From Polaromonas sp. (GTDB taxonomy: Bacteria > Pseudomonadota > Gammaproteobacteria > Burkholderiales > Burkholderiaceae_C), in NCBI RefSeq assembly GCF_013817205.1, contig NZ_JACDDD010000006.1:14282-78281 (forward strand): a stretch of DNA of 64,000 nt, written 5' to 3'. Made by a program: the position numbers and the translations under genes. Shown piece after piece: positions 13,874 through 18,569 of this stretch (position 1 is the stretch's first letter; every line of letters begins with the position of its first letter). The notes beneath the pieces are model-generated. The model was not told the origin of the DNA, made no database searches, and worked only from the letters and a program-made list of their open reading frames with translations.

Positions 13874-16846
13874 TCAGGCCGTGTACTCGCTGACCGGCAC
13901 GCAGCTGCAGAACAGATTGCGGTCGCCATAGACGTTGTCGACGCGGCCTACCGGCGGCCAGTACTTGACCTGCCTGAGCGTGGCCAAGGGGAAGGCGCCG
14001 GTTTCGCGCGGGTAAGGCCTGTCCCAGTCTGTGCCCAGCAAGCTGGCTGCGGTGTGCGGCGCGTGTTTGAGCGGGTTGTTGTCCTGTGGCCAGACACCTG
14101 CCTCGACCTTGCGGATCTCTTCCCGGATGGCAATCATGGCGTTGATGAAGCGGTCCAGCTCGGCCAGGGTTTCGCTCTCGGTGGGCTCCACCATCAGCGT
14201 GCCCGGCACTGGAAAGCTCAAGGTCGGCGCGTGAAAGCCGTAGTCCATCAGGCGTTTGGCGACATCCTCAGCCGTGACGCCGCTGGTTTCCTTCAGCGGC
14301 CGCAGGTCAAGAATGCATTCGTGCGCGACGTGGCCGTTGGCACTCGCGTAAAGCGTCGGGTAGTGGTCCTTGAGCCGCGCGCTGATGTAGTTGGCGCTGA
14401 GAATGGCGACCTCTGTCGCCTGCTGCAGGCCTTCCGGGCCCATCATGCGGCAATACATCCAGCTGATCGGCAGCACGGCGGCATTGCCCAGTGGCGCAGC
14501 TGATATGGCCCCCACGCTTTTCACTTCGTGTAATTCGCTGCCCCCCGAGGGGGCTGTTTTTCCTTGGGGCGCCCCGGCGGAAAAACTGGCCCCTCCGCCT
14601 GGATAACCGGCCGTGGCATGGCCGGGGAGGTAGGGCACCAGGTCGGCCACCACACACACGGGGCCGACACCGGGACCGCCACCGCCGTGCGGAATGCAGA
14701 AGGTCTTGTGCAGATTCAGGTGGCTCACGTCGCCGCCAAATTCGCCGGGCGCGGCCACACCCACCAGCGCGTTCATGTTGGCGCCATCCACATAGACACG
14801 GCCACCATGGCTGTGGACGAGGGCGCAGAGCTCCTTGACCTGCGTCTCGAACACGCCGTGGGTGCTGGGGTAGGTGATCATCATGCAGGCCAGTTTGTCG
14901 CTGTGTTGCTCACACTTGGCTTTCAGGTCGGCCATGTCGACATTGCCCTGTGCGTCACAGGCAGTGACAACGACGGTCATCCCCACCATCTGCGCGCTGG
15001 CCGGATTGGTGCCGTGGGCCGACGAGGGAATCAGGCAAATGTTGCGGTGGCCCTGGCCTTGCGCCTCATGGAAGGCCTTGATCACCAGCAGGCCGGCGTA
15101 TTCGCCCTGTGAGCCGGCATTGGGCTGCAGGCTGATGCCCGCGTAACCGGTGGCCTGGCACAGCCAGTCACGCAACTGTTTGTCGAGCTCGGCGTAGCCC
15201 TGCAACTGGTCCTGCGGTGCAAACGGGTGGATGTTGGCAAACTCTGGCCACGTGATGGGGATCATCTCGCTCGTGGCGTTGAGCTTCATGGTGCAACTGC
15301 CGAGCGGGATCATGCTGCGGTCCAGCGCCAGATCCTTGTCGCTCAGCATGCGGATGTAGCGCAGCATGCCGGTCTCGGAGTGGTGGGTGTTGAACACCGG
15401 GTGCGTCAGGAAGTCGCTGCCGCGGCGCAGGTCTTCGGGGATCAGGGAGGCCAAGCCTTTTTCAAAAGCGCTGACCACCGGTACGGTCTGGCCGGGCTGC
15501 GCAAAGAAGGACCAGAGCAACTCGATGTCCTTGCGGCTGGTGGTTTCGTCCAGCGACACGCCCAGGTGATTGTTCAGGCGAAAACGCAGGTTCGCCCCCG
15601 CCTGGCGTGCGCGTCCAGCTATCAAATTGGTAGCGTCACCGGTCTTGATGGTGACCGAATCGAAAGCGCCACTGTTGGTGATCTCATAGCCCAGCGTCTT
15701 CAGGCCCTGCACAAAGACGGCGGTGTAAGTCGCCACGCGCTCGGCAATGCGCTTCAGGCCTTGCGGGCCGTGGTAAACCGCGTACATGCTGGCAATCACC
15801 GCCGGCAGTACCTGCGCGGTACAGATGTTGGACGTGGCTTTTTCGCGGCGTATGTGCTGCTCGCGCGTCTGCAGCGCAAGGCGGTAGGTCGGCTGGCCGT
15901 GGCTGTCGATGCTGACGCCGACCAGGCGCCCGGGCAGCGAGCGCTTGAACGCGTCGCGGCAGGCCAGGTAGGCCGCGTGCGGGCCGCCATTGCCCATGGG
16001 CATGCCGAAACGCTGGGTGCTGCCGAGCACGATGTCGGCGTCCCACTCGCCCGGCGGCGTAAGCAGGGTCAGCGCCAGCAGGTCGGCGGCCACACACAGC
16101 GCGGCGCCGTCCACATGCGCCTGGCCGGCCAGTGGCCGCAAGTCATGGATGCTGCCAGTGGTGGCGGGGTACTGCGCCAGCACGCCGAAGTAGTCGCCCC
16201 CGGACATCAGCATGGGCAGCGTGGTTGATGCGGTGCTGAGCCTGACCTCAATGCCCAGTGGTTTGGCGCGCGTCTGGATCACCTCGATGGTTTGCGGGTG
16301 GCAGTCACCAGCGACCAGGAAGACATTGCTTTTGCTTTTGACGCTGCGTTTGGCCAGGGTCATGGCTTCAGCAGCGGCCGTGGCCTCGTCGAGCATGGAG
16401 GCGTTGGCTACAGGCATGCCGGTGAGGTCGCAGACCATGGTCTGGAAGTTGATCAGCGCCTCCAGGCGGCCCTGCGAGATCTCGGCCTGGTAAGGCGTAT
16501 AGGCGGTGTACCAAGCCGGGTTCTCGAGGATATTGCGCAGGATCACACCGGGCGTCAGGGTGCCGTAGTAGCCCTGGCCGATGAAACTCTTGAAGACCTG
16601 GTTTTTGGCCGCCATGGCCTTGAGCTGTTTCAGGGCGGCAGCTTCGCTGACCGGTGGGGGGATGGCCATGGCGCTGCTGCGCGCGATGGACCGCGGAACA
16701 ATGCCGGCTATCAGCGCACGGCGTGAGTCCGAGCCGACAACGCGCAGCATGTGGGCTTCGTCCGTGGCATCAATGCCGATGTGGCGGGCAATGAATTCGG
16801 CAGGGTTTTCAAGCTCGCCGAGCGGCTTGGCGGTGGACATCAACAT
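13874..16846 (-). CDS. gcvP: Glycine dehydrogenase (P protein) with in-frame repeat insertion
   Basis: [29 protein letters not shown] lysine, IPHGGGGPG. Confidence 0.97.
14508..14579. repeat. Palindromic element, family B, in frame inside gcvP
   Basis: GCCCCCACGCT...CACTTCGTG...TCGCTGCCCCCCGAGGGGGC...CTTGGGGCGCCCCGGCG; aligns to 18150-18222. Confidence 0.9.
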
Positions 16847-16947
16847 GACGAGGGACTTTCTAATGCCGTTCGCCATGAGCTTGTCGAAGGGTGCCATTAA
16901 AGAGGCAAGCTTCGACAGGCGCAGCCCGAACGGGGTGGAGAGGTGGT

Positions 16948-17316
16948 TTATGCGTTGGCGGCAAAGCTGGTGTAGGCAGCTTCATCCAGCAGCGAATCAA
17001 GCTGCGACTTGTCAGCCAGCTTGACCTTGAAGAACCAGCCGGCGCCAAGCGGGTCGCTATTGGCGAGTGAGGGGTCGTCCCGCAGGGCTTCGTTGACTTC
17101 AGTCACCTCGCCGCTGATCGGCATGAAGACGTCGGCGGCGGCCTTGACCGACTCGACCACGCCAGCCACCTCTTTCTGCGCAAAGCTGCTGCCGACCGAG
17201 GGCAGGTCCACAAACACCACATCACCGAGCGCATCCTGGGCGTGGGTGGTGATGCCGACGGTGGCAACGTCGCCGTCGAGCTTGATCCATTCGTGGTCTT
17301 CGGTGTACTTGAGCAT
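16948..17316 (-). CDS. gcvH: Glycine cleavage H protein
   Basis: [30 protein letters not shown] lipoyl lysine. Confidence 0.97.
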
Positions 17317-17354
17317 GGTCTTCTCCATTGAGTAAAAGTTGAAAGATGAAAATT

Positions 17355-18569
17355 TCAGCCGCGGAAGTAACGGGCGGGCACAAAAGGCATGGCCCTGACT
17401 TCCATGGGCACCGGCTTGCCGCGCACCATGGCATTGACCCGCGTACCGATGACTGCGAAGGCCGGCTCGACATAGGCCATGGCTACGGGTGTGTCTATCG
17501 TCGGCCCGAGCAGGCCGCTGGTGACTTCGCCGATGCAGCGACCTTCGGCATTGTGCAGTTCGGTGTGTTCACGCACAGGCACGCGCTCGAGTGCGATCAG
17601 GCCCACGCGCTTGCGGGCCAGGCTGGCGGGAGTGTCAAGCTGTGCCAGCACCTTCTCAGCGCCCGGGAAGCCGCCCGCACGTTCGCCGCCGGTGCGGCGC
17701 ACCTTCTGGATCGCCCAGTTCAGGCTGGCCTCGACAGGCGTGGTGCTGGTGTCGAGGTCGTTTCCGTAAAGGCACAGGCCCGCTTCCAGCCGCAGCGAGT
17801 TGCGCGCACCCAAGCCAATCGGTTTGACTTCAGGCTGGGCCAGCAAGGCGCGGGCCAGGGTATCGGCCTGGTCGGACGGCACGGAAATTTCAAAGCCGTC
17901 TTCTCCGGTGTAACCGCTGCGTGTGAGGAAGCAGTCGCAGCCGGCCACGGTAAAACGCCCGCCGGTCATGAACACCAGTTGTTCAACGCCAGGGGCCAGG
18001 CGCGCCAGCGCAGTGACCGCCTGCGGCCCCTGCAGAGCCAGCAGCGCCATGTCGGGCATGGGAATGACCTCGCATCGGCTGCCGATTTTTTGCTGGATGT
18101 GCGCGATGTCACCTACCTTGCAGGCGCCATTCACGATAACGAAGATATTGCCCCCACGCTTGCTCACTGCGTGTGGCTCGCTGCCTCCCGAGGGGGCGCT
18201 CGCGTCTTGGGGCGGCCCGGCGACGCTTCGGTCCTCCCCGAGATTAAAAAACATCAAGTCGTCGATGGTGCCGCCTTCGTCATTGAGCAGCAGGCCGTAG
18301 CGCTGCTTGCCGACGGCCAGGCCGATGACATCCACAGGGATCAGGCTCTCAAGCGCGGCGGCGGCATCGGGCCCCACCAGGCGCAACTGGCCCATGTGCG
18401 AGACGTCAAAGAGCCCGGCGGCGCTGCGGGTGTGATGATGTTCGGCCATCAGGCCGGCCGGGTACTGAACCGGCATCGAATAGCCCGCAAACGGGACCAT
18501 GCGGGCGCCCAGTTCCAGGTGCAAGGCATTCAGAGGTGTTTTTGACAGCGGGGTATCGGTGGCGGACAC
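17355..18569 (-). CDS. gcvT: Glycine cleavage aminomethyltransferase (T protein) with in-frame repeat insertion
   Basis: [33 protein letters not shown]; GTG start after GGAG. Confidence 0.97.
18150..18222. repeat. Palindromic element, family B, in frame inside gcvT
   Basis: GCCCCCACGCT...CACTGCGTG...TCGCTGCCTCCCGAGGGGGC...CTTGGGGCGGCCCGGCG. Confidence 0.9.

Follow-up and report, generated by a model that had tools for sequence, protein, structure and literature searches.

We examined a stretch of 64,000 nucleotides from a Polaromonas genome (hereafter the window; C104:14282-78281 of a 3.77-Mb, 62% GC draft in 149 contigs), in which two genes of the gcv operon, gcvP and gcvT, each contain a copy of the same short palindromic repeat, inserted in frame. 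The host family is the Comamonadaceae, and the named relatives are Rhodoferax, Hydrogenophaga, and Limnohabitans. Coordinates below are those of the window unless a contig is given. The gene gcvP (13874..16897, minus strand) encodes a glycine dehydrogenase (P-protein) of 1007 amino acids that matches the TIGR00461 equivalog model with 1414.8 bits over residues 38-999. The gene gcvT (17355..18608, minus strand) encodes an aminomethyltransferase (T-protein) of 417 amino acids. It matches the NF010093 equivalog model with 507 bits, and this match is broken into two stretches, one on each side of the insert.

The two gcv copies

The copy in gcvP spans 14503..14590 (minus strand; nhmmer match C104:28784-28871) and adds 25 amino acids to a PGH...VSAAP loop. 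The copy in gcvT spans 18143..18226 (minus strand; nhmmer match C104:32424-32506) and adds 24 amino acids between two beta strands. Both are in frame and in sense orientation, both belong to the short form of the repeat (type B, see below), and they agree at a mean column identity of 83% over 112 columns. A 20-mer common to both, GCCCCCTCGGGRGGCAGCGA, has two exact occurrences in the window, versus 0.02 expected. Read on the plus strand, the gcvP copy has a terminal motif, GCCCCCACG, at 14509-14517; hairpin 3, CACTTCGTG, at 14522-14530; hairpin 2, GCCCCCCGAGGGGGC, at 14540-14554; and a left hairpin, with arms TTTTTCC and GGAAAAA around a conserved loop, at 14557-14585. In the gcvT copy, the terminal motif lies at 18150-18158, hairpins 3 and 2 (plus-strand readings CACTGCGTG and GCCTCCCGAGGGGGC) at 18166-18174 and 18183-18197, and the left hairpin, with arms GCGTC and GACGC around the conserved loop, at 18202-18226. 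A preliminary description of this DNA had placed the two segments correctly and had their peptides and hairpins exact; the real element is slightly longer and has the left hairpin in addition.

That description had also taken the segments to be insertions relative to orthologues, and they are. All 21 of the GcvT orthologues that were first examined are empty, reading FFN(R)(DYLN)GGD-IFVIVNG where the protein from this genome has its 24 extra residues, and all eight of the first-examined GcvP sequences from congeners lack the 25 extra residues found here. At the DNA level, the difference between filled and empty sites is exactly 72 nt in gcvT and 75 nt in gcvP.

Mapping onto structure models, as had been proposed, was done for GcvT. 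An AlphaFold2 model (43-sequence alignment) has a mean predicted local distance difference test score (pLDDT) of 90.8 and a predicted template modeling score (pTM) of 0.88. The insert (residues 123-153) appears in it as a low-confidence coil between the strands at 114-122 and 154-159, with pLDDT below 50 at residues 134-149 and above 90 in the remaining fold. According to this model, the Gly/Pro/Ser/Ala-rich peptide of the insert is a disordered excursion in a surface loop. The GcvP site corresponds to a short linker of variable length in homologues from the Protein Data Bank (E. coli-like, Synechocystis, and human).

Between gcvT and gcvP lies an ORF of 126 amino acids (16948..17328, minus strand), presumed from operon order to be gcvH, in which nhmmer found no copies of the repeat. 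Directly upstream of gcvT is a tandem glycine riboswitch (18616..18840, minus strand), with RF00504 aptamers at 18616-18717 (61.1 bits) and 18737-18840 (46.9 bits). It belongs to the operon context and is separate from the repeat. A search of both gcv copies against Rfam gave no match at E values up to 1.

A dispersed repeat with three hairpins

The suspicion that the segments belong to a dispersed repeat was borne out by 204-230 copies in the genome: an iterated nhmmer search for a core of about 73 nt gave 204 copies, a full-length profile found 216 copies, and merging these with the core set gave 230. The repeat is modular and GC-rich and has a sharp consensus. A left hairpin is followed by hairpin 2, hairpin 3, and then a fixed end, CGTGGGGGC, which is invariant. 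In the long form (type A), the element is about 100 nt, and its left hairpin reads GGCCGCGG..CCGGC-TTT-GCCGG..CCGC (consensus GGGGCCGCGGxxCCGGC-TTT-GCCGGxCCGCAGGCG). In the short form (type B), the element is 78-87 nt and has a variable stem with a conserved loop, GCCGGGCCGCCCCAAG. Hairpin 2 (GCCCCC-TCG-GGGGGC) is nearly invariant; hairpin 3 has about 6-7 bp, a bulged A, and a GNA triloop. The 9-mer GCCCCCACG occurs 199 times in the genome, and 161 of these occurrences fall inside elements.

Selection on the structure of the hairpins, which the preliminary description had proposed from the two gcv copies, is supported by covariation among the copies of this one genome. The mini-stem of hairpin 3 covaries between CAC/GTG and CGC/GCG. 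At its pair 50-56, A-T (133 copies) is exchanged for G-C (51 copies), and 93% of copies are paired versus 75% expected (mutual information 0.66 bit). The extension of the stem shows three pair types: T-A (133), G-C (28), and C-G (24) at pair 47-58 (93% paired versus 62% expected; 0.82 bit), and C-G (91), G-C (49), and T-A (26) at pair 46-59 (92% versus 48%; 1.0 bit). Shifted control pairs are paired at the chance level, with mutual information of at most 0.25 bit and, in five out of six, at most 0.08 bit. For the short form, the two arms of a stem from the same copy form 4.7 bp on average versus 3.2 bp for arms taken from different copies (maximum over 200 shuffles, 3.6 bp).

Most copies (about 85%) are intergenic. 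A genome-wide count, another check that had been suggested, gave at least 26 in-frame and 177 intergenic copies. Co-directional spacers hold 137 of the 177 intergenic copies, convergent spacers hold 30, and divergent spacers hold 10. Divergent, promoter-only spacers are thus avoided (5.6% of intergenic copies versus 22% of spacer length). Of the copies between co-directional genes, 95 run against the direction of transcription and 42 run with it.

Where copies are adjacent, they form direct repeats with periods of 81-105 nt. Such arrays are found in this genome at C13:41135-41377, C52:1159-1313, C67:7603-7734, C93:5521-5699, C96:46633-46869, and C96:66225-66381, and in relatives as well (G128, G139, G122, G147, G160, G171, and G074). 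Within the family, the period is a multiple of three in 16 of 18 arrays (81, 84, 87, 93, or 105 nt), and this extends to intergenic-looking arrays, for example that between cobT and cobS on C13. For the two other families with the core (G333 and G275), the periods are 82, 89, 91, and 94 nt.

The long-form copies gave only a sub-threshold match in Rfam, to c4-a1b1 (21.2 bits versus a gathering score of 46.7). This match lies on the left hairpin, at C25:17000-17048 (L166:90-138), and is most likely due to chance. We also searched the available literature with characteristic 11-mers and 16-mers of the element and with keywords; we found no description of it and nothing on Comamonadaceae. The repeat family is a real and non-autonomous element of Comamonadaceae, and apparently an undescribed one.

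Host genes, empty sites, and distribution

To call a copy in frame, we used a codon-usage classifier trained on 481 long ORFs and required coding sequence on both flanks. At least 26 copies in at least 24 ORFs were in frame, which bears out the analogy to Rickettsia palindromic elements (RPEs) that had been drawn from the two gcv copies. For 23 of the 24 hosts, the identity was confirmed by NCBIfam or Pfam, and the profile matches are often split at the insert; a CtaA-like host is the only one that no family model from these databases confirmed. Besides GcvP and GcvT, the hosts include PutA, an MdtB/MuxB-type RND pump, GlnD (three tandem copies), GlnE (two sites), AroA-Cmk, PrmA, FdhD, MoeA (two tandem copies), PriA, PBP1C, a YejF-like ABC ATPase, a CopA-type ATPase, an Ada/AlkA-like protein, HrpA, Cfa, AmgK, a bacterial alpha-2-macroglobulin, a DUF3683/FAD-oxidase/Fe-S protein, an FAD-monooxygenase/OYE fusion, an EamA transporter, and a TAXI-type receptor. 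The functions of these genes are unrelated to each other. Genic copies are more often of the short form (16 of 25) than the other copies are (52 of 183; odds ratio 4.5, p = 0.001).

The in-frame copies use both strands about equally. The peptide from sense copies reads ..AGPPQ..APSGGSE.HAV..., and that from antisense copies reads ..APTL.T..SSLPPEGA...GGPS. Since the consensus has no stop in four of its six frames (any one frame stays open in 57-90% of the copies), copies in genes are easily stop-free, and open reading through the repeat needs no special explanation. The preliminary description was right that both gcv ORFs stay open despite a 1-nt difference in length between the copies, but this is unremarkable, and we rejected an open frame as a sign of selection: composition alone leaves four of six open.

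For 21 sites, we joined the two flanks of the insert into one query and ran it against 20 congeners. Among the matches listed, 19 of the 21 sites read as empty in every congener match, while for the GlnD and CopA sites no congener match was listed. The congener matches span the junction with 0-29 extra residues (values read by hand) versus 47-104 in this genome. The closest relative (G011) has 11 of the sites empty. The GcvT allele of G011 is empty and has a native-looking NRGED loop. The inserts in the DUF3683-oxidase and PrmA are common to this genome and G011, with contiguous alignments at 86-90% nucleotide identity, and MdtB is occupied in G011 as well. As some sites are empty in G011 and others are common to both genomes, insertions accumulated on both sides of the last speciation event. 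On the timescale of speciation, insertion continues: the majority of sites are unique to this species, and a few also occur in its sister.

The putA gene of G011 (L136/L148, C51:12133-12693) is empty at the site that is occupied here and carries its own insertion of about 75 nt, located 25-30 nt downstream; the same short stretch was hit twice.

Across the family, we searched with a strict pattern for the core; in this genome, it recovers 119 sites. The pattern was found in 72 of 150 genera, with up to 98 sites per genome, and a control with the reversed pattern gave about zero. Outside the family, it was found in just 3 of about 196 genomes of the order, and the suggested link to the repeats of Bordetella is not supported. 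The sense peptide was also seen in other genera, within open frames of 700-1400 amino acids. Spot checks in such genomes gave further cases: in G096, the DUF3683 oxidase has an independent insertion at a different site; in G100, there is an independent insertion in the FAD/OYE protein; and in G050, HrpA is occupied at the same site as here. An unidentified conserved protein (...GSPLAPEVQRWG...DIWWxNxSGGTDF...) is occupied at one site in two genera, with two tandem copies in G053 (L177, C10:49000-50500) and one copy in G050 (L181, C1:3186900-3188300).

Origin of the inserts and comparison with known systems

We consider it very probable that both gcv segments are copies of a selfish, RPE-like, non-autonomous repeat that is tolerated in permissive loops. 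The element multiplies as DNA, chiefly into spacers at the 3' ends of genes, and a minority of copies are located within genes, where they have persisted; these have a length that is a multiple of three and are free of stops. The copies in gcvP and gcvT are two of these survivors, among at least 24 host genes. The covariation of the hairpins may reflect propagation only from copies whose hairpins are intact, and an enzyme that recognizes hairpins in single-stranded DNA would explain such a restriction. More generally, from the hairpin architecture, we infer a route of movement through single-stranded DNA. Certain sites may act as hot spots; the loop in gcvP, whose native sequence resembles the element's terminus at 9 of 10 bases, is a candidate.

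Several results weigh against this reading. No transposase is linked to the element, and no parent insertion sequence was identified. The genome has just one Y1 transposase-like gene (PF01797; C109:19922-20617, minus strand; 232 amino acids), which is present in a single copy. There is no copy of the repeat within 12 kb of it, the sole copy on that contig being at 7802-7900, and the gene occurs in 146 of the 151 family genomes, with or without the element. We found no constant target duplication in the 11 filled/empty pairs versus G011 or at the gcvP and gcvT sites; some microhomology was seen at PbpC, Cfa, and the ABC ATPase. Terminal inverted repeats were not found either; the ends, GCAGGGGCC... 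and ...CGTGGGGGC, repeat directly. The fold energies of the two gcv copies are no better than those of shuffled sequences (z = -0.67 and +0.21), and the z-score of the long-form consensus, -1.7, is weak for such a GC-rich sequence. Since the fold energies are unexceptional, it is covariation that carries the structural claim. Because the copies are related by descent, the covariation counts overstate the number of independent events, and gene conversion between copies could give the appearance of covariation and of independent insertion alike. Finally, the placement in a surface loop comes from a single modelled host, GcvT.

Nearly all genomes in which the Y1 gene shares about 64% identity or more with the one here also have the repeat, a pattern that is confounded with phylogeny. 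The Y1 gene looks domesticated. We rejected linkage to a repetitive extragenic palindrome (REP)-associated tyrosine transposase (RAYT): the Y1 gene is not flanked by copies and is nearly universal, including in element-free genomes.

A different history for the inserts is unlikely but deserves weighing: the gcvT insertion, and possibly those in gcvP and HrpA, could be ancient, with the patchy distribution arising by repeated precise loss, with gene conversion refreshing the copies, and without any insertion at hot spots. Three distant GcvT orthologues (71-78% identical), from two Rhodoferax metagenome-assembled genomes (MAGs) and one Hydrogenophaga MAG, are occupied at the same position and in the same orientation and frame, and all four occupied alleles have similar GC-rich left stems. 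Furthermore, two inserts were clearly inherited between this genome and G011, and palindromes are prone to deletion. However, when the insert is left out of the GcvT tree, the occupied alleles come out scattered, and the sister allele is empty. The NRGED loop of G011 looks native, like the other empty alleles, and deletion would rarely recreate such a loop. The preliminary description had allowed that orthologues might carry these segments as ancestral sequence; occupied orthologues do exist, but their scatter on the tree speaks against an ancestral segment. In GcvP, the copies of this genome and of G043 differ: G043, which has inserts in both GcvT and GcvP, has two tandem copies in GcvP whose left stem and hairpin 3 are unlike those of the copy here and belong to a different subfamily. 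Judging from these sequences, we read the occupancy of GcvP as two separate hits at a single site. The occupancy of GcvT may stem from recurrent insertion, from the transfer of alleles, or from an ancient insertion with repeated loss.

The native gcvP site, GGCGTGGGCGCCAT, matches the terminus of the element at 9 of 10 bases (null probability of about 0.001), and one class of empty gcvT alleles matches the CGTGGGGGC terminus at 8 of 10. Over 13 empty sites, the mean similarity to the terminus was 5.85 versus a null of 5.71 (p = 0.35), and we rejected a CGTGGGGGC-like target as a general rule. We also rejected the idea that the variable stems are copied from the flank of the target, as the native gcvP site does not contain TTTTTCC. 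The target preference that had been suggested from the two gcv copies is partly supported: the GcvP, GcvT, and HrpA loops are reoccupied in distant lineages, and the gcvP site matches the terminus, although this similarity is not general. A stronger version seems quite doubtful to us: the element would be a site-selective unit of single-stranded DNA, with its three hairpins as recognition modules for the single-copy Y1 (RAYT-like) transposase homologue found across the family; it would home again and again to codon-level sites in conserved genes, namely the loops of GcvP, GcvT, and HrpA; and its short form would have evolved units in multiples of three (81, 84, 87, and 93 nt), which suit insertion into coding sequence. 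If this were true, the element would be a continuing generator of new protein loops across Comamonadaceae.

It is very unlikely that the inserted peptides have been co-opted, that is, that these Gly/Pro/Ser-rich loops endow the host proteins with something new (for example, a flexible linker or a site of interaction) and are kept by selection on the protein. Inserts do persist in essential enzymes, with three tandem copies in GlnD and two in MoeA, and some have survived speciation. But the DNA motifs behind the conserved peptide AGPPQ..APSGG are equally conserved in intergenic copies, the two strands are used about equally and yield unrelated peptides, and the GcvT insert is predicted to be disordered.

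We see even less reason to think that both copies serve the gcv operon, with hairpins that tune mRNA processing, translation pausing, or the stoichiometry of the P- and T-proteins, as the preliminary description had speculated in part. Both copies are sense-oriented within one riboswitch-controlled operon, and G043 also has inserts in both genes. There are two pairs of neighboring host genes in the genome, which is mildly unusual (p = 0.04), but random placement yields one pair within two gene positions 28% of the time (p = 0.28), and we rejected operon-specific clustering on this weak signal. Also, G042 has an insert in GcvT while its GcvP is empty, and in the sister genome (whose gcvT site is empty) and in congeners, this operon runs with neither insert present. 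The other 22 hosts have unrelated functions, and the gcv copies fold no better than shuffled sequence, as noted above. Last, the genome is a draft in 149 contigs, yet it is scarcely credible that the inserts are artefacts of mis-assembly or chimeric binning, as all 26 keep the frame, lack stops, and sit between contiguous stretches of orthologous sequence, and the same kind of insert is found in independent assemblies of other organisms.

Selfish copies that are tolerated in loops, as we favor, have practical consequences: the inserts make proteins longer, break up profile matches, and give rise to spurious hypothetical ORFs in the annotations of Comamonadaceae. They also provide clean pairs of filled and empty sites in sister species, arrays that are tandem and in frame, and loops that were hit repeatedly. 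With its cultivable genera, the group is a more tractable setting in which to ask how the element moves, how proteins tolerate random loops of 25 residues, and whether any insertion is ever co-opted.

Among known systems, hairpin elements derived from IS200/IS605 (PATE-like) insert beside a short, fixed target that abuts one end. The CGTGGGGGC end of the repeat is invariant; empty sites match it only at gcvP (9 of 10) and in one gcvT allele (8 of 10). [quoted passage not shown] The REP/REPIN-RAYT systems are similar in more respects: they are based on hairpins and lack terminal inverted repeats; they are mostly extragenic, at the 3' ends of genes, with a bias in orientation; they number in the hundreds per genome, and their stems are kept by compensatory changes; and the genome studied here has one Y1 transposase-like gene. 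However, the unit here has three hairpins and 78-100 nt, instead of a single palindrome of 20-40 nt, and no GTAG-type head was seen in it. Its arrays are direct and tandem and not inverted doublets, and the Y1 gene is unflanked by copies and present in element-free genomes.

The closest comparison is with RPEs (Ogata et al. 2000 Science 290:347; 2002 Genome Res 12:808, both as cited in PMC10969869), for which the latter, a review, gives 44 integrations in unrelated metabolic genes of R. conorii. The same review, on MITEs and from 2024, places the RPEs of Rickettsia at the extreme of in-frame fusion and names ERIC, QMITE1, and the Anabaena MITEs as other cases (PMC10969869). Both RPEs and the repeat described here are short and palindromic and have no coding capacity of their own. 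Both are found in frame in many unrelated housekeeping genes whose ORFs are preserved (at least 26 copies here), and in both the inserts appear to be compatible with the fold of the host protein, which is suggested here by the GcvT model and the linker in GcvP. The differences are that RPEs are about 150 bp and occur in an AT-rich, obligate intracellular alphaproteobacterium, whereas this element is 78-100 nt and occurs in a free-living betaproteobacterium with 62% GC; that it has three separate hairpins, one of which combines a conserved loop with a variable stem; that about 85% of its copies are intergenic, both of its strands are coding, and it forms tandem in-frame arrays; and that the same loops are hit in separate lineages. 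Because the host belongs to the Comamonadaceae, we regard the repeat as an analogue of RPEs and not as a member of that group; the two are likened by their behavior, and no sequence relationship is expected. The colonization of housekeeping genes, in frame, by a palindromic repeat has so far been treated as nearly unique to Rickettsia. The same behavior is seen here in free-living, GC-rich Burkholderiales from freshwater and soil, with more cases in other genera.

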